A DNA stretch of 64,000 nt from NCBI RefSeq assembly GCF_003334765.1, contig NZ_QOWT01000022.1; one strand, 5' to 3'. Origin of the DNA: Escherichia coli (GTDB lineage Bacteria; Pseudomonadota; Gammaproteobacteria; Enterobacterales; Enterobacteriaceae). Positions within the stretch are counted from its first letter, which is position 1. Each line of letters begins with the position of its first letter. Positions 1 to 7,581 of the stretch are shown piece by piece. Under the pieces are notes generated by a model. That model saw only the letters and a program-made list of their open reading frames with translations, was not told the origin of the DNA and made no database searches. The translations under genes were made by a program, and so were the position numbers.

Positions 1-555
1 GCCGCCTTTCAGGACGCCAGTATGCTGATGCGCATCAACCACAATCCCGTTAGAGCTCATCGCTCCACCGCCCTGGGTAACGCCACCATTGATCACCACT
101 TCGCTGTTAATACGCGTGCGGTCAGCCTCCAGCATAAACTCACTGGTTTTCAGGGTGATATTGTCAGCGGCCTCAATGACCATTGATTTGATGCCCCTGA
201 CATACCAGCGCCCGGTGGCGGGTTCGTATTCAAACCAGCCGCCGTCAGGATGTTCTGTCACGCAGGCGTCCGCCGACGTCGAAGGTGGCGCGAACTGATT
301 CGAATAGATGGCGGGTAACGCAAAGGCGGTTTCCAGATTGCCGCCCAGACTCAGCAGCACCACCTGCTCACCTTCCGATGGTCGCCACCATGTGCGGGCA
401 TTACCCGCGCGCAGCGTCAGCCAGTTAATCCAGTTGGTTTCAAGGTCGCCCGTTTTCACCCGACAAAGCCAGTTTTCCCGGTCCACTTCGGTGACTACAC
501 CTATGCGGATCAGATTGGTGATAAGGCGCATGATTTCGGTTAGTTGTGCGTTCAT
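1..555 (-). CDS. Phage baseplate assembly protein V (gpV-like), N-terminal ~185 codons; 3' end lies beyond the window start
   Basis: Reverse-strand translation from ATG at 555-553 reads MNAQLTEIMRLITNLIRIGVVTEVDRENWLCRVKTGDLETNWINWLTLRAGNARTWWRPSEGEQVV..., typical of P2 gpV; absent from the ORF track because it has no stop in the window. Confidence 0.8.
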   Translation of the reverse strand, partial: MNAQLTEIMRLITNLIRIGVVTEVDRENWLCRVKTGDLETNWINWLTLRAGNARTWWRPSEGEQVVLLSLGGNLETAFALPAIYSNQFAPPSTSADACVTEHPDGGWFEYEPATGRWYVRGIKSMVIEAADNITLKTSEFMLEADRTRINSEVVINGGVTQGGGAMSSNGIVVDAHQHTGVLKGG

Positions 556-658
556 AGATATATGATGACAGCTGAAAACTTGTTTATAACTTCTTGCAAA
601 TTGTGGTATCGATGGTACAAATTGATAAAAGGATAAAAAACAACCAATAGGTGGATAA

Positions 659-1465
659 ATGAGTGTTATGAATCCAATAAGTTCTAATATATTTAATGCT
701 GAATTTTTAAACACCCCGGCAGCGGCACTTGCCGCATGGATTTCCATTATTGGAGCTGTTATAACTTTGGTGACGATAGTTATAAGAGCACTATTCAAAT
801 ATAGAAAATCTCATGATGTAATTTTGAAAAAATCAGGAATACCTGCGTTTATATTGAATTTTTTTCTTATACGAATATCATTAAAAAGGCTGCCTACTAT
901 CACATGGGCTGAAAAATCAATCACGGTTCTCTTTTCACTTCTTTTTTTGTGTGCAATTTATATTTTTGGTCCAGTTTTCATCCAAGCCATTAGAACCCCA
1001 CCAAATAGCACATTGCTTTATTGGATAAAATCCGGTGAATCATTTTATATGTCAAAAAAACTGGCGACTGCAGCTACAATATTAACCACTCCTGATTGGG
1101 AAATATCAAAGGATGATTGCGAAGAGTCATCCTCTGCCAGTACAGAGAAGTACAAATCATTAACTATCGAACATAAAGAAATTCTTTGTAAACTACTAAC
1201 CACTGATGAAGGGAATGCTTACATTGATGAAGAAGTCAAGAATTTCGTTAAAGACAAATTCTTTATCTATTCCTTTGCCCCAACAACCATATTTATTCTA
1301 TTATGGATTTCTTTGGGTTTTATACTGACCATTCACTATTCTAAAAAAGTTAGGAAATATATTCTGACTGAACAAAAAAATGCAATTCATTGGGCATATG
1401 GTGAATTCAAGACAGAAGGAATCTATTCAATATATCAAGAGTTAGAACGTAAGACTCACCATTAA
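659..1465 (+). CDS. Hypothetical polytopic membrane protein (268 aa), AT-rich cargo gene between S and V
   Basis: ORF with GGTGG Shine-Dalgarno 6 nt upstream; several hydrophobic helices; AT-rich; opposite strand to flanking tail genes. Confidence 0.5.
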   Translation: MSVMNPISSNIFNAEFLNTPAAALAAWISIIGAVITLVTIVIRALFKYRKSHDVILKKSGIPAFILNFFLIRISLKRLPTITWAEKSITVLFSLLFLCAIYIFGPVFIQAIRTPPNSTLLYWIKSGESFYMSKKLATAATILTTPDWEISKDDCEESSSASTEKYKSLTIEHKEILCKLLTTDEGNAYIDEEVKNFVKDKFFIYSFAPTTIFILLWISLGFILTIHYSKKVRKYILTEQKNAIHWAYGEFKTEGIYSIYQELERKTHH

Positions 1466-1853
1466 GACCCAACAAACGACGCTCTGCGTAACGCACTTCC
1501 GGTCCTTTGCGGCTGACGCGATCGCGCAGGCCATAATGGTGAACGCGGGCAATGCGCTGCACCTTACCTTCAAACTGCACGCTGGCAGAATCGGCGCTGG
1601 CGGCAGTTTTCAGGTATTTGGTGGTGCGCAGCTTTGCAAACATCTGACGTTTGATGCGGCCTTTTTTACTGCGCGCCGTGACCTTGCGCGGTTCATAACT
1701 GCTGCCATCTGGATTGCGCTGCATCCTGATATTCTGCTGCTGTGTCCGGCGCAGTTCCTGCGCCAGCTGGCGCATCATGCGGCTTCTTGCGACTGGTTCC
1801 AGATTCGCCAGTAAGGCACTAAGCCAGTCGTCCACCTTCTGCAGTTCAGCCAC
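1407..1853 (-). CDS. Phage tail completion / virion morphogenesis protein (gpS-like)
   Basis: 148-aa ORF with the sequence character of the phage virion morphogenesis family; lies between R-like and V as in P2. Confidence 0.7.
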   Translation of the reverse strand: MAELQKVDDWLSALLANLEPVARSRMMRQLAQELRRTQQQNIRMQRNPDGSSYEPRKVTARSKKGRIKRQMFAKLRTTKYLKTAASADSASVQFEGKVQRIARVHHYGLRDRVSRKGPEVRYAERRLLGLNGESYVLTLDILNRFLLS

Positions 1854-2304
1854 GTTTCACCGTCCACATTTCTTCAGGTTCATCGGGTTCTGCTACCGCT
1901 TCAACGCTCGACACACTGCCGTCAGTGCTGACCAGCACACGTTCCGTCAGTTGCAGGTTAAGGCTGATATCACAGACATCGTTGCGCAGAATATCCACCT
2001 CAAAGGTAAATAGTTTTTCCCGTAACGCCGGGTTATTGATGGCATCGGGCTGGTTATCCCGCAGCCACAGCAAAACCGGGGCCATCAGCAGATTCTGGTC
2101 GCCGCTGAAATCCTCAATCACCACGTTCAGGGTGTAACCACGCAGCCCTACGAGTTCACTAAAGGCAGTATCTTTCACCTGATGGAGCCGGACCTGAACC
2201 AGGAAATTTACGGCCTGCCGGAATATCTGTCCGCCATTCCGTCCGCCTTGCTGAACGAGTCCGCTACGCTGTTCCGGCGTAAATACTACATCAATGGCAG
2301 TCAT
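1846..2304 (-). CDS. Phage tail completion protein R-like; N-terminal portion probably not native (antisense to portal-derived sequence)
   Basis: 152-aa ORF; its stop overlaps the S start by 8 nt; its first ~40 codons overlap the portal fragment on the other strand. Confidence 0.5.
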   Translation of the reverse strand: MTAIDVVFTPEQRSGLVQQGGRNGGQIFRQAVNFLVQVRLHQVKDTAFSELVGLRGYTLNVVIEDFSGDQNLLMAPVLLWLRDNQPDAINNPALREKLFTFEVDILRNDVCDISLNLQLTERVLVSTDGSVSSVEAVAEPDEPEEMWTVKRG

Positions 2305-2712
2305 GCAGGGTTCATCATGTATATGACCGACGCCGCGCAGAACCAGGAGGACGTGAACAACATCCGCCAGGCCATGAAAAGCGCTAAAGGACCGGGCAAC
2401 TTCCGCAACCTGTTTATGTATTCACCCAACGGCAAAAAGGACGGGATTCAGATAATCCCGCTGTCAGAGGTAGCGGCAAAGGATGAGTTTCTGAACATTA
2501 AGAACGTGAGCCGAGACGACATGATGGCTGCACACCGCGTTCCGCCGCAGATGATGGGGATTATGCCGAGTAATGTTGGGGGATTTGGGGATGTGGAAAA
2601 GGCGAGTAAGGTGTTTGTCCGTAACGAATTGATACCGCTGCAAAAGCGAATTAAAGAAATTAATGAATGGTTGAGTGATGAAATAATTTCTTTCCAACCA
2701 TATGAATTATAA
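2182..2712 (+). pseudogene. Phage portal protein (gpQ-like) C-terminal fragment; 5' boundary uncertain
   Basis: Translation contains RRKYYINGSHAGF and MMAAHRVPPQMMGIMPSNVGGFGDVEKASKVFVRNELIPLQ, which I recognise as portal C-terminal sequence; far too short for a complete portal. Confidence 0.6.
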
Positions 2713-2733
2713 TAAAGTAGGGCAAATAATGCC

Positions 2734-3591
2734 CTACTTTAACCAAATATTATAATCCAATCTTCCTACGTATCTTGAAAAAACAGCCAGAGCAATTGCT
2801 TGCCCTACACTTGTTAATTCAATTCCTTGATAGTTGCTCTTTGAAAATTTTTCTAAAAATGCAGACACATGAGGGGCAACTAACTTAAGATTTGAAATAT
2901 ATGCACTCTTATCTTTTATATCAGTCGGATATTTACTCATAAAATAGTCTTCAACATCCATCCCTAAAAAAGTATTCCATGAACAAGCCCCTGCATATTG
3001 AATGTGATATATCTGGGCTTGAGACAAATTAAACCCATTAGTATACATTGATTCAAAGTTTCTAAAATTGTGCTCCAACAAATCCAATCGAACACCATTA
3101 ACAGGGTCTTTGATCTCAACATTCTTGAGAAGAAAAACTATCGTTATAAGTGATATTTGTTGCTGTGTTAACTTGGGAACGACGGTAACTGCCTCCGTTA
3201 AAACTATATCTCTAAAATCGTCATTGTTATTGGAGACTCGTTCAACTAACAACTGAGAAAGCACATCCATATTAGCTTTCTTTCCCTTCCTGGCTGATGA
3301 CTTTAATGCCTCAGTCAATGTAGCCTGAACGTCCGGATCGCAAAATTTATCAATAATCAATCTATCAACGTTTTTTGTTAAATCCGAAACGACACGCTCT
3401 TCAAAATCTTTTGCATTCTCTTGAGCTGCAGCATAAGCAACATCTTTCAATTTTGGAAACTGATTTTCGAAGAGAATGTTGAATAGTTCTCTAACCTCGG
3501 AAAACGACATCCCTGAAACATTTACATTATTTCCAGCTTGAATTGCATACGAATTATTACCTATTTGTTGCTTTTGCTTATCACTAAACAT
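2734..3591 (-). CDS. Hypothetical protein (285 aa), AT-rich cargo; second gene of a two-gene module
   Basis: Start is preceded by GGAGGA directly after the stop of the upstream small membrane protein gene; no family recognised. Confidence 0.6.
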   Translation of the reverse strand: MFSDKQKQQIGNNSYAIQAGNNVNVSGMSFSEVRELFNILFENQFPKLKDVAYAAAQENAKDFEERVVSDLTKNVDRLIIDKFCDPDVQATLTEALKSSARKGKKANMDVLSQLLVERVSNNNDDFRDIVLTEAVTVVPKLTQQQISLITIVFLLKNVEIKDPVNGVRLDLLEHNFRNFESMYTNGFNLSQAQIYHIQYAGACSWNTFLGMDVEDYFMSKYPTDIKDKSAYISNLKLVAPHVSAFLEKFSKSNYQGIELTSVGQAIALAVFSRYVGRLDYNIWLK

Positions 3592-3600
3592 ATATCCTCC

Positions 3601-3846
3601 TTATTTTTTATCACCTGTATTTATACAATCAATTTTAATATCACCTCTAGCCTGGACAGCAGTTGAATTATCACCAACTGATTGGCTCATAGAATTATAT
3701 TTATTTTTTGTAGTGATAAGTAATCCAGCTAAAGCGCTAACTGCAGCCAAAAATGCAACAATAGAATCAAAACCAGGATCCATATAAAGCCATAATCCTG
3801 CAATCGATGCCAGCATACATGTAATGACTATTGCAAAAATTTTCAT
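3601..3846 (-). CDS. Small membrane protein (81 aa, two predicted TM helices); first gene of the two-gene cargo module
   Basis: ORF with AGGAG upstream; hydrophobic N-terminal two-thirds, polar C-terminal tail. Confidence 0.55.
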   Translation of the reverse strand: MKIFAIVITCMLASIAGLWLYMDPGFDSIVAFLAAVSALAGLLITTKNKYNSMSQSVGDNSTAVQARGDIKIDCINTGDKK

Positions 3847-3914
3847 AAATTCTCCTTCTAATGGAAGTGGTTATACCGAAAACAATTTCCTTTTACAACC
3901 ACGCACAGCGCGCG

Positions 3915-3940
3915 CTCGTATCCCCGCCACGCCTGCCCGC
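3915..3940 (-). other. Candidate cohesive-end (cos)-like sequence of the P2/186 type
   Basis: Minus strand reads GGCAGGCGTGGCGGGGATA; the GGCGTGGCGGGGA core matches the 186/P2 cos overhang as I recall it, and it sits in a GC-rich island between AT-rich cargo. Confidence 0.3.
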
Positions 3941-3983
3941 TTTGTGTAGTGGTTTTCATGCACCTGCATGACATAAGTAAAAG

Positions 3984-4001
3984 CCCGCCAGAACTGGCGG
4001 G
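3984..4001 (-). terminator. Hairpin plus T-run on the minus strand (possible relic phage terminator beside cos)
   Basis: cccgcca-gaac-tggcggg stem-loop followed on the minus strand by CTTTTACTT. Confidence 0.35.
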
Positions 4002-4151
4002 ACTGAGCAAAAACGATCCTTTTGCGATCATTCATTTTCATGCGCTATAGTCATGCAACAAACGCATACGAACCATATGGTTAGATTACTCATCAAGTCA
4101 GATGGATTTTCAGGCAGATTGCCACAGCAATTGTAAAGGAGCGAGATTGAA

Positions 4152-5153
4152 ATGGGTGGAGAGACTTCGGCTATACAACGAGTCGCGGGTAAGATTTCTG
4201 ATGATATTTTCTCAGTGTTCAAATGGGATCGTGCCGCTAGAGCGGACATGAATTGGGATTGTTGCCAAGAGGCTCATTCCAAGAAAACACATCCAAGCGA
4301 TGTTGTATTTTTCTACATAGATCCATATGAGGAGGAAATGGTCTATCTCAACACAGACCTCAAAAGCTATGCAGAAGGTACTATTGGGAAAAAAATAGTC
4401 GAGGGAGCTTTAACATCGCTTGCTTTAGCTACCGAGTGTGCAAATGTCAGTGAAGAATGGCGATTGAAATATGTTCATGATGATTCTTTAGGTTATAACG
4501 TAAGAGGGTTATTATTCTTATATAACCATGATAATTTATATGATAAAGACTTCTATGAGAATATTACAAAAAAATTAGATCACTCATCTATAAATTGCCC
4601 TCCAAACATCAAACTACATTTGCTTGACCCTTATAAAATATCAGATTTGATAAACATATCTTCTGACATAACTAAGTTAATTGGTTCAGGCAAACTTCCT
4701 CAACCTGATAAGTTCACATATTATTATCCAGATCTTTCCCTAACAAGAATAAAGCACCCTATTAATCAGACAACACCTGCAACAATTGAATTATTAACAT
4801 CACCATACATTATAATAAAGCATGAGGCTTTCAGTTGGCTCAGGGATAAAAACCCTGAGGGATATGTTGTTTATTACAATCAACCGGGGGATTCAGTAGA
4901 CGAATTCGTTTACTTCTTTGATATGTTATCAACTTATCAGATATTAACCGAAGGTAAACCAATCGTATTACGCCATTGTCACATTCACCCAAATGAAAAT
5001 GCCATTCATCATTTTGAAAGAGCGAAAAAGAAATACAGCACAGACTGGCTCTTAGGCGAGGATGAAAGACTTTTTCTTAAAATTGACTTCGACAAGACAG
5101 ACAAAATTGTTGTTGAATATAATCTTGAACAAATCGGCATGGAGCAACGATAA
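4152..5153 (+). CDS. Hypothetical protein (333 aa), gene 1 of a three-gene cargo cassette; possible PD-(D/E)xK-like motif
   Basis: AGGAG upstream; AT-rich; FFYIDPYEEEMVYLNTDLK resembles a hhhD...(D/E)xK nuclease core; no Walker A. Confidence 0.7.
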   Translation: MGGETSAIQRVAGKISDDIFSVFKWDRAARADMNWDCCQEAHSKKTHPSDVVFFYIDPYEEEMVYLNTDLKSYAEGTIGKKIVEGALTSLALATECANVSEEWRLKYVHDDSLGYNVRGLLFLYNHDNLYDKDFYENITKKLDHSSINCPPNIKLHLLDPYKISDLINISSDITKLIGSGKLPQPDKFTYYYPDLSLTRIKHPINQTTPATIELLTSPYIIIKHEAFSWLRDKNPEGYVVYYNQPGDSVDEFVYFFDMLSTYQILTEGKPIVLRHCHIHPNENAIHHFERAKKKYSTDWLLGEDERLFLKIDFDKTDKIVVEYNLEQIGMEQR

Positions 5154-6232
5154 TGGCTAAAAAACTATATTTCGCAACTGATAAAAATATTTATGATGCA
5201 TTACATCATAAAAGGATAACCGCTGCAAAGTTGCATGAATTATTGTTGAATCGAGGTGTGTTTTTATCACCAGAACTCGACAAGGAAATACTAATCGAGG
5301 AAATATCCAAACTTCCTCACGGATTTAATGAATTAGAACACATAAAAAAACTGGTCAAAACATATGACCCAAGGGAAAGCACTACTAGTGTGAGCTTCCA
5401 AACCTCAACAAATCAGGCCGAATTAAAAAGTGCTGCTGAAGCACTAAAAAAAACATGCTCCCCTAGTAAAGGTCAAAGCCTGAATATTGTAGCTAAAAAA
5501 GATGGCTCGCTTACAGTAGAATACAAATATGAAGAAATAGACCTGTCTAAAACTGCATTACGTCAGATCGACAAGCGGAATGTTATAATAGAACTTCGCC
5601 CTGGAGCTGACAAAGTTGAAGTACGTATGCCTCAAAACCCCGAGGCAAAAAAAGTTATTGAGAGCTTGCAAAACGAGCTATCTAAAATCAAGTCCGAACC
5701 TATCGAGCGCTTCGAAATATCATTACTAGCAATAACTGATCCTACATTGCGAAGTCAGTTTTTTCAGGAATTAATGAATGGTCTACGCGGTTATGAGACT
5801 GATGACGTAACAAAAGTCGAATTAAATCGCAGTACTGATGCTAGTGAGGATGAAGACAAGGAAGAAACTATTGATACCGGATTTGTTAAGAAAGCCGTCC
5901 TTAATGGTGAAGGGGTAAATAGTTCAGCTATATTTTCTCAACTACATGAGAAAGGTTATTATATCGGGCGTATTGCATGGTCTTCAAAGCCGACAAGTGG
6001 AATTGGAGACAGAATCAACGTCGAAGCATTTTTCAAAGACTCAGAAAAATGCTGTGACTTTGCCTATCAAATTAAAGGTATAAACAATCAAAAAGAAGAC
6101 GGTTTCAATGTAACCATTCGCGCGGCAACGGCACAAGAGAAAAAACATATTAGTGAATTAATTGAGTCCGCCGCTGAAAATGCCTATAATATAATAATAG
6201 GATCAGAGGTGAACGAAGATGAAAAAGGTTAA
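5153..6232 (+). CDS. Hypothetical protein (359 aa), gene 2 of the three-gene cassette
   Basis: ATG overlaps the gene 1 stop (TAATG at 5151-5155); GGAG 8 nt upstream; acidic patch SEDEDKEE; no recognisable family. Confidence 0.7.
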   Translation: MAKKLYFATDKNIYDALHHKRITAAKLHELLLNRGVFLSPELDKEILIEEISKLPHGFNELEHIKKLVKTYDPRESTTSVSFQTSTNQAELKSAAEALKKTCSPSKGQSLNIVAKKDGSLTVEYKYEEIDLSKTALRQIDKRNVIIELRPGADKVEVRMPQNPEAKKVIESLQNELSKIKSEPIERFEISLLAITDPTLRSQFFQELMNGLRGYETDDVTKVELNRSTDASEDEDKEETIDTGFVKKAVLNGEGVNSSAIFSQLHEKGYYIGRIAWSSKPTSGIGDRINVEAFFKDSEKCCDFAYQIKGINNQKEDGFNVTIRAATAQEKKHISELIESAAENAYNIIIGSEVNEDEKG

Positions 6233-6902
6233 ATGGCTTAAGTTAAACATACGGCTTGAGTTTGAAACAGCCGTTAGACGTCTTTCTCTTGATTCTTTTA
6301 CAGAGGATAAAGGGAAAGGGTTCATTTTTGATAAAATACGCCATGATTTTGCAAATGGTCGCTTTGTCGAGCGTATTGTTTATCATGATAAAATATTAAG
6401 CTTTGACGGAAGCGAAACTACCGTTGAAAGAATCGAATATCGCACCACAAATTTTAGCGTGGCTTTAGACTCTCTTCCTGTAATGCAGATTACTAACCCA
6501 CCCAGAACTTTAAAGCCTTTTTCGCAGGCTTTGGTAAAAAATCTTGGCTTAGGTGTTAGTTTGGAAGAAATTGACATAAACCCTATAGACTGGCTTAATG
6601 AAATATCTTCAAGTGTAAATATCAATTTAACACAACTTGATATTTCAAGGGTTAGAGTTTCTGATTACGCCACAGCTAAAATGCAAATAATTGGCAGCAA
6701 TGATCTTAGGAAGTATTATAAAGAAGAATTAGAGGGTAAAAAAATAAGAATTGACAGGCTTGTTTGCTCTGTTAATTCATTAGAATATTCCGGTAAGCTC
6801 AAGATCACCAATAGCGGCCTTGCTTATATTGATGTTAGAAATGAGAATGAGTTTACGAAAATCGTTTTTGATACGTTAAAAAAAGTCACCCTTCAATCAT
6901 AG
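6219..6902 (+). CDS. Hypothetical protein (227 aa), gene 3 of the three-gene cassette
   Basis: Start lies 14 nt inside the end of gene 2 (translational coupling); GAGGTG upstream; no recognisable family. Confidence 0.65.
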   Translation: MKKVKWLKLNIRLEFETAVRRLSLDSFTEDKGKGFIFDKIRHDFANGRFVERIVYHDKILSFDGSETTVERIEYRTTNFSVALDSLPVMQITNPPRTLKPFSQALVKNLGLGVSLEEIDINPIDWLNEISSSVNINLTQLDISRVRVSDYATAKMQIIGSNDLRKYYKEELEGKKIRIDRLVCSVNSLEYSGKLKITNSGLAYIDVRNENEFTKIVFDTLKKVTLQS

Positions 6903-6958
6903 ATGGCTTATAAGGAGTTACTTCACCTAACGCCTCGCCTTACTCGTTGTTCAACCTC

Positions 6959-6989
6959 GTAGGCGTCAGAATCAAGTTCTGACGCCTAC
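6959..6989. terminator. Perfect 13-bp inverted repeat hairpin between the cassette and the convergent DinI-like gene
   Basis: gtaggcgtcagaa-tcaag-ttctgacgcctac; no strong T-run on either side, so function as a terminator is uncertain. Confidence 0.35.
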
Positions 6990-6997
6990 AATGTTTC

Positions 6998-7231
6998 TTA
7001 ATGCAGCCAGCTATCGTCCTCCCAGACCTGCTGCATTATTTCCATCACTCGCTTTTTGTCTTCATCCAGTTTTAACCCGCTCAGCTCAACGCCATTGGCG
7101 CTGCCCTTACGGATACGAATTGCTGTTTTGGGATACAGAGGGCGCAAATTACGGTAAAGCTCGGATTCAAGGGCGTCCAGGGTAGACTGGCTAATCTTCT
7201 GCTCTTTATCGATCATTATTTCAATGCGCAT
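6998..7231 (-). CDS. DinI-like protein (77 aa from the MRIEIM start), resembling the C-terminal part of a 186 Tum-type module
   Basis: MRIEIMIDKEQKISQSTLDALESELYRNLRPLYPKTAIRI...VWEDDSWLH resembles DinI; the track ORF (7303 start) is probably over-extended. Confidence 0.6.
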   Translation of the reverse strand: MRIEIMIDKEQKISQSTLDALESELYRNLRPLYPKTAIRIRKGSANGVELSGLKLDEDKKRVMEIMQQVWEDDSWLH

Positions 7232-7241
7232 AAAAGCCACC

Positions 7242-7430
7242 TCAGCTGATGACATCCATTGAGCGGTTGTATTCGTGGGTTCTGATTTTTGCCATGAGTT
7301 CATCTGTCAGTTCAGAAACCCACTGCAGAGCCAGCCCCTTCTCTTCATCACTACACTCACTAGCCGCTACAAGCTTAAGAAAAAAATCAATGCGCTGGAG
7401 CTTCAAAGACTCCAAAAAATAGTCCTGCAT
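7242..7430 (-). CDS. Small protein (62 aa), first gene after the LexA-controlled promoter; possible Tum-like antirepressor part
   Basis: AGGAGG 4 nt upstream of the ATG; directly downstream of the LexA box; different frame and overlapping the DinI-like ORF. Confidence 0.4.
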   Translation of the reverse strand: MQDYFLESLKLQRIDFFLKLVAASECSDEEKGLALQWVSELTDELMAKIRTHEYNRSMDVIS

Positions 7431-7471
7431 CTTTCCTCCTATGACACCAAAGCAACACTGTATACATAACC

Positions 7472-7489
7472 ACTGTTTGTATTTACAGT
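7472..7489 (-). promoter_or_regulatory. LexA operator (SOS box) overlapping the -10 of a strong promoter for the Tum/DinI-like genes
   Basis: aCTGT-ttgtattt-ACAGta, a perfect CTGT-N8-ACAG; on the minus strand TTTACA (-35) and TATACT (-10) flank it. Confidence 0.7.
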
Positions 7490-7581
7490 ATATAATAATA
7501 TTACTGATGTAAAACGTTTTTTACGTTCATCAGCCTGATATGCCTGGTATTATTAAGAGCACGAATTGTTAACCTGCGTAA

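Follow-up and report, generated by a model that had tools for sequence, protein, structure and literature searches.

We found that a gene near the start of the window (the whole stretch of Escherichia coli DNA analyzed here, 64,000 nucleotides of contig NZ_QOWT01000022.1) encodes a member of the DUF6216 protein family, and the evidence well supports its assignment as a single-gene accessory cassette, or moron, in the slot that separates tail genes S and V in a P2-like prophage. The slot itself is already known: the S-V interval is one of the three moron regions of P2-like phages (PMC6823313), and the DUF6216 gene, hereafter the cargo, adds an occupant to it. Drawing on location and architecture only, we favor a role for the cargo in superinfection exclusion, or in another form of anti-phage protection at the envelope; this reading is tentative, and we put its probability at roughly 40%. 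The features on which the argument draws are listed in Table 1.

Table 1. Features of the S-V slot and its surroundings in the window, followed by the other sampled occupants of the slot.
Feature	Coordinates	Strand	Description and basis
Baseplate assembly gene V	1..555	-	N-terminal 185 codons, the rest lying outside the window; heads the P_V operon
AT-rich cassette in place of the 68-bp S-V spacer	556..1465		Alignment with phage 500465-1 and G+C contrast
Candidate cargo promoter	594..621	+	TTGCAA (594-599), 16 nt, TGgTACAAA (613-621); extended -10-like; overlaps the activator box
TGT-N12-ACA box, Ogr/Delta-type activator site of the P_V late promoter	602..619	-	Consensus per PMC3931495
Shine-Dalgarno AGGTGG	649..654	+	4 nt 5' of the cargo ATG; read from the sequence
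DUF6216 family gene (cargo)	659..1465	+	ATG start, 268 aa; ORF list, Pfam PF19723, RefSeq name
Dual-coding stretch	1407..1465		Last 19 cargo codons (+) / last 19 S codons plus stop (-)
Tail completion / virion morphogenesis gene S	1407..1853	-	148 aa; RefSeq annotation and, in homologous loci, Pfam Phage_tail_S; last gene of the P_O late operon
Tail gene R, truncated	1846..2138	-	blastn versus the strain H3 locus L001
SIR2/ThsA-like protein	S-V slot	co-directional with tail genes	PADLOC
FRG-domain protein	S-V slot	reverse-oriented	PADLOC PDC-S15
DUF2971 protein	S-V slot	reverse-oriented	PADLOC PDC-S31
DUF6602 protein, PD-DExK/NucC-like nuclease	S-V slot	reverse-oriented	PADLOC
429-aa protein	S-V slot	reverse-oriented	PADLOC PDC-S59

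As the preliminary description had proposed, a frame of 268 codons runs on the strand opposite to the surrounding tail genes V, S and R and is AT-rich: the 807-bp ORF has a G+C content of 0.33 (GC3, 0.27), and the values are 0.30 at 556-658 and 0.32 in the overlap with S, versus 0.56 in V and 0.58 in S outside the overlap. At the composition of the cargo, a stop-free run of this length is expected by chance at only about 6e-10 per frame position. Pairwise comparison of six homologs from different hosts gave dN/dS values of 0.11-0.34, and dN/dS was below 1 in each region of the cargo examined. These data indicate that the cargo is under purifying selection and therefore is a real gene; a spurious ORF is ruled out by the dN/dS values and by the improbability of the stop-free run. 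In homologous loci, the position of the Shine-Dalgarno sequence is occupied by AGGAGG or GGAGG.

The prophage in the window is P2-like (Peduoviridae, Wadgaonvirus-like) and of a type integrated beside ybjL. The late genes of P2 are expressed from four Ogr-dependent promoters with TGT-N12-ACA; S closes the P_O operon and V opens the P_V operon (PMC3931495). This places the cargo precisely at the boundary of two late operons. The tail operon context first described thus stands with respect to the genes that surround the cargo, but the operon is not intact: R is truncated. A blastn comparison with the corresponding locus of strain H3 (L001) revealed a deletion joint at 2131-2138, with the 8-bp microhomology GGTGTAAC, that fuses R, devoid of its N-terminus, to the last 176 codons of the portal gene (2182-2712). 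Compared with strain H3, the window prophage has lost its lysis, head and terminase genes and is therefore defective. Despite this, the cargo ORF is intact.

Farther along the same prophage, three consecutive ORFs of 333, 359 and 227 aa (4152-6902, + strand) match the PADLOC models Hp1, Hp2 and Hp3 over their full length, with E values from 1e-239 to 2e-157. These make up 3HP, the three-hypothetical-protein defense system of the cos-adjacent P2 hotspot (Rousset et al. 2022; PMC9122126). A gene for an LPO_1073/Vpar_1526 family protein (2734-3591, - strand) and an 81-aa membrane ORF (3601-3846, - strand) adjoin it. The same prophage type, with an intact DUF6216 gene (ECD_RS04470), lies beside ybjL in E. 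coli BL21(DE3) (NC_012971.2, 875441-895578); in E. coli B/BL21, the cos-adjacent hotspot holds a retron St85-family reverse transcriptase and its effector where the window has 3HP. A search of Rfam returned no RNA family in positions 1-8000 of the window.

Comparison with relatives defines the cassette and its empty site. The 68-bp S-V spacer that the cassette replaces is present in phage 500465-1, in many Klebsiella phages and in most related E. coli prophages, and alignment with phage 500465-1 places the right junction of the cassette at about 1450-1466, inside S. Among 5426 complete E. coli genomes, 1054-1190 hold these S/V flanks and 109-111 carry the cargo, which always adjoins S. About 45 of the 60 carriers listed are clonal laboratory derivatives of B/BL21/REL606, so the natural prevalence is near 1%. 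The same clonal derivatives dominate, and so render uninformative, our comparison of whether carriers have fewer co-resident related P2-like prophages; a natural carrier, RM10466, has a second related P2-like locus. A scan of IMG/VR with a narrower alignment returned only close relatives; at 17 of its 19 loci, the spacing from V is 100-104 nt and the overlap with S is of the same kind.

These comparisons bear out the proposal that the gene is a moron and not a structural gene: relatives have an empty 68-bp site, other single genes occupy the slot, and the interval is a published moron region. [quoted passage not shown] Nor does it show the conserved presence and position of virion structural and assembly genes, and it has no PHROG match. 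The cargo moves as a unit with its own AT-rich version of the P_V promoter region and with the last 19 codons of S.

The convergent overlap of the 3' ends of the cargo and S, noticed at the outset, spans 59 nt. In carriers, S ends with 19 residues that are coded by the AT-rich cassette (...GLNGESYVLTLDILNRFLLS); in the empty-site phage, S has the same length and ends with ...GVNDDVEAMTRDMILQWLAG, and T138, D140 and L146 are common to both versions of the tail. The carrier-type S tail also accompanies a cargo with no more than 50% identity (L008, with the same 59-nt overlap). Shorter overlaps, of 47 nt, were found in two loci (L006 and L009), and one of 33 nt was found in a distant, 296-aa family member (L014, E=4e-15) that occupies the V|X|S slot of another P2-like prophage. 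Synonymous divergence falls to 0.24 in the dual-coding stretch, versus about 0.6 elsewhere, as expected where two reading frames are under constraint. Outside the S-V slot, DUF6216 members stop near residue 246, and the last 19-22 residues of the cargo protein are specific to its subfamily; we accordingly interpret these last ~20 residues as an extension that arose when the frame ran into the antisense of S.

The persistence of this overlap in near and far members raises the question of whether the transcript, rather than the protein, is what matters: transcription reading through the cargo would produce RNA antisense to S and R, which would dampen leaky late-gene expression in lysogens. Consensus scans found no intrinsic terminator 3' of the cargo stop codon on the cargo strand, as such a role would predict. 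We nonetheless consider this explanation very improbable, given that the protein is under strong purifying selection along its whole length, that family members occur in other contexts without S, and that the four other reverse-oriented cargos sampled from the slot do not overlap S.

At the other end of the cassette, we aligned the V-to-cargo interval of all slot variants (empty, DUF6216, FRG, DUF2971, DUF6602, SIR2 and 429-aa). Only the V start codon and the TGT-N12-ACA box, at a fixed distance from each other, were common to all. Only about 55 nt separate the center of the box from the start codon of V, for which no Shine-Dalgarno sequence is visible; if the box is located near -55, as in P2, the leader of the V mRNA would be very short. 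On the cargo strand, a TGnTACAA(A/T)-like element is present in every slot variant, with some departures from the consensus, and the candidate cargo promoter, which lies 30-60 nt upstream, is kept in all carriers, including remnants that retain only the first codons of V. A consensus promoter scan called no promoter for the cargo, and in E. coli, AT-rich foreign DNA is often silenced by H-NS; both points weigh against the exclusion reading, which presumes expression in lysogens.

The candidate promoter overlaps the P_V activator box and the 3' end of the cargo overlaps S, and we therefore propose that expression of the cargo and expression of the late tail genes may be mutually exclusive. In a lysogen, or in a cell bearing a remnant, the cargo would be expressed from its own candidate promoter, and such an element, if active, would serve reverse-oriented cargos in general; during lytic growth, Ogr bound at the overlapping activator box, together with convergent P_O transcription through S, would shut the cargo off.

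RefSeq names the protein 'DUF6216 family protein' (WP_001573379.1), and Pfam DUF6216 (PF19723) matches residues 72-237 over positions 114-265 of the 270-position model (E=7e-12, 45.6 bits). A word-indexed search returned 32 close clusters from E. coli, Salmonella, Klebsiella, Citrobacter and Serratia; all of these but one, a 167-aa fragment, carry a precomputed PF19723 domain. The family is small: a profile search of 1.84 billion representative proteins recovered only 50 relatives, the near full-length ones being 225-296 aa long. No family in PHROGs or NCBIfam matches the protein, and none in PADLOC-DB 2.0 does so at E<=0.1; tblastn queries with the protein and two distant 246-aa family members found no relative in 50,697 phage records. 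The DUF6216 profile matched no PDB sequence, and no similar solved structure was found. A 231-aa E. coli entry in AFDB50 (A0A377K9R8), 98% identical to the protein, is named 'Ybl42', a name that we did not find in the literature; literature searches for DUF6216 and Ybl42 yielded no functional information.

The several hydrophobic helices of the preliminary description proved to be three. Kyte-Doolittle analysis gave hydrophobic segments at residues ~22-44, 87-110 and 203-226, plus a weakly hydrophobic stretch at 61-75. The loop at 45-86 contains 9 K/R versus 2 D/E, and the C-terminal tail contains 8 K/R, a positive-inside charge pattern. The protein is thus predicted to be an inner-membrane protein with three transmembrane helices, an N-out/C-in orientation and a ~95-aa periplasmic domain at residues ~111-205. 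Across 43 members (17-99% identity), F129, C154 and C177 alone are invariant, and the nearly invariant P114, L120, A136 and W147 lie in the same loop. The presence of an invariant cysteine pair in a loop predicted to face outward suggests a disulfide bond, and suggests that this domain is the functional core; the conservation of loop 111-205 fits an oxidized, disulfide-stabilized periplasmic domain. The AlphaFold model has a pLDDT of 78, and block means in the periplasmic domain are ~83-93, dipping to 68-72 at residues 151-170. Within the subfamily, the loop at 45-86 and the tail at 229-249 are the most conserved parts (pN/pS of 0.25 and 0.14, respectively).

We also considered whether the protein could be a holin. 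The first helix alone (30 residues) resembles Phage_holin_2_3 (HP1 type), at a sub-threshold E=0.098, and the gene is outside the lysis cassette and opposite to it; this candidate was rejected. The carrier phages have a HP1-type holin of their own.

The other occupants of the slot provide context for function. We sampled five other cargos (L015-L019, all from E. coli prophages of this lineage), and all five match PADLOC defense or candidate-defense models. From these five cargos, the S-V slot looks like a single-gene defense hotspot with fixed edges, the P_V activator box and the end of S. All five, however, are cytoplasmic enzymes and unlike the DUF6216 protein, which counts against the argument from location.

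Several of these neighbors, namely SIR2 proteins and nucleases, are enzymes typical of abortive infection, and the cargo could likewise act as an abortive-infection effector of the membrane kind: it would lie idle in the inner membrane, sense infection and collapse membrane integrity or energy, killing the infected cell before the phage cycle is complete. Encoding by a single-gene cassette and the presence of transmembrane helices fit such a role, as does the conservation within the subfamily of the predicted cytoplasmic loop and tail. We nevertheless judge it fairly unlikely. The residues invariant across the family are all in the predicted periplasmic domain and none is in a cytoplasmic sensor; moreover, the protein matches no PADLOC membrane effector and the cassette contains no partner gene.

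Family members outside the S-V slot offer further evidence. A 246-aa member in a lambdoid phage (L010 3492-6741, and L011) is located between an N6/N4 DNA methylase gene and the holin gene. It lies 3' of an HTH/ParE toxin pair and the methylase, just upstream of holin, endolysin and Rz, and is co-oriented with the late and lysis genes. This is the classical cargo position downstream of Q, and hence a second kind of phage slot for DUF6216. The co-orientation counts against exclusion, as it would fit a role in the lytic cycle too, for example in lysis timing or in the exclusion of secondary infection during lytic growth. The weak likeness of the first helix to HP1-type holins points the same way. 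We regard a lytic-cycle function as quite improbable even so, because in P2-like prophages the cargo opposes both late operons and would be countered by P_O transcription. In addition, most close relatives lack it and are presumably viable, it is kept in remnants that are unable to lyse, and the phages already possess a holin.

Intact members also persist without any surrounding tail genes (L003-L005 and L021/22). In Klebsiella aerogenes, a member adjoining an IS element near rpoD-mug has outlived its decayed prophage; a remnant adjoining ybjL retains a CI-type repressor and an AAA ATPase with its member, and another ybjL-adjoining member has no phage gene left around it. In all cases so far, the DUF6216 family occurs in phage accessory slots, in prophages or in their remnants. 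That members are retained once the virion genes are gone argues for a benefit to the host and not to the phage alone. The copy in E. coli B/BL21 is likewise intact and differs from the window protein by 2 aa. E. coli B is the classical permissive host of T1-T7; it also supports P2, and P2 Hy dis arose there. Since E. coli B carries an intact copy and yet is permissive, any exclusion must be narrow or conditional.

The same observations could indicate that the cargo is a lysogenic-conversion factor that acts in envelope physiology other than phage defense, for example in envelope-stress tolerance or in immunity to bacteriocins, tailocins or contact-dependent toxins. Retention in the fully decayed islands by ybjL and rpoD-mug implies a host benefit of whatever kind, the exposed domain is predicted to be periplasmic, and E. 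coli B is sensitive to the T phages with the gene in place. We consider this alternative unlikely, as the family has been found only in phage accessory slots or their remnants, and the neighboring slot cargos are defense-like.

We return to exclusion at the envelope as the favored reading; the preliminary description had raised superinfection exclusion or a membrane-acting function, and this part of it is plausible. Four considerations lead us to it: all five other sampled cargos match defense models and the prophage carries 3HP; the conserved core is predicted to face the periplasm, the compartment in which the tails and ejection proteins of incoming phages operate; decayed prophages retain the gene; and its layout, a three-helix gene placed backwards beside a virion gene, resembles that of sieA of phage P22. 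According to this model, the DUF6216 protein would reside in the inner membrane by means of three helices, with its disulfide-stabilized domain of ~95 aa facing the periplasm, and would act at the envelope to protect the carrier cell from incoming phages. Its most likely route would be interference with genome delivery across the inner membrane, i.e., superinfection exclusion. A more specific version joins this model to the proposed regulation: DUF6216 would be an unrecognized family of envelope-level phage-exclusion proteins that act via a periplasmic disulfide domain, and the S-V slot would be a switchable module, which would keep the cargo active in the lysogen and silent during tail building. 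Taken as a whole, we hold this version to be doubtful.

If exclusion is indeed the function, a new family would join the short list of understood exclusion mechanisms, with a periplasmic domain that makes DUF6216 tractable. The cargo is intact in E. coli B/BL21 and REL606, which rank with the laboratory strains in widest use, and its function is therefore cheap to test directly. The S-V interval, moreover, could be mined in the same manner as the cos-adjacent hotspot. Should the cargo prove to be without a phage phenotype, it would be one more uncharacterized moron.

Among known systems, gp15 of HK97 is a moron located among tail genes that reportedly blocks DNA entry at the inner membrane, as Cumby and colleagues are said to have described in 2012. 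Both HK97 gp15 and T4 Imm are inner-membrane exclusion proteins, but they are much smaller than the DUF6216 protein and have one or two helices. The closer parallel in layout is P22 SieA, which, like the DUF6216 protein, is a prophage-encoded inner-membrane protein with three predicted transmembrane helices. Similarly, sieA is placed backwards among virion genes and is convergent with gene 16, and it has its own promoter. SieA, however, is 162-164 aa long, lacks a large periplasmic domain and has its conserved motif in the cytoplasm (PMC10883804), whereas the DUF6216 protein has 268 aa and a conserved core consisting of a ~95-aa periplasmic domain with two cysteines. The DUF6216 protein has no sequence relation to P22 SieA, T4 Imm or HK97 gp15. 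We specifically rejected it as a homolog of SieA (types A-C, with the motif FxRYPxEAxxFNK): hhalign of the 43-sequence profile with P22 SieA gave a probability of 0.4%.

Within the P2-like phages, two genes are known from the same S-V slot, orf30 of P2 (261 bp) and ORF16 of R18C (741 bp); both are smaller than the 807-bp cargo, and their function is not known (PMC6823313). The old, tin and fun(Z) genes and the cos-adjacent hotspot are, like the cargo, P2-like accessory loci; these loci have a high turnover of cargo and protect the lysogen against other phages (PMC9122126), but they occupy other slots, and the S-V slot is distinct from the hotspot analyzed by Rousset et al. 2022 (PMC9122126). 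The defenses encoded at these P2 accessory loci and in the hotspot are cytoplasmic enzymes or multi-gene systems, in contrast to the DUF6216 gene, which is a single gene for a predicted membrane protein.
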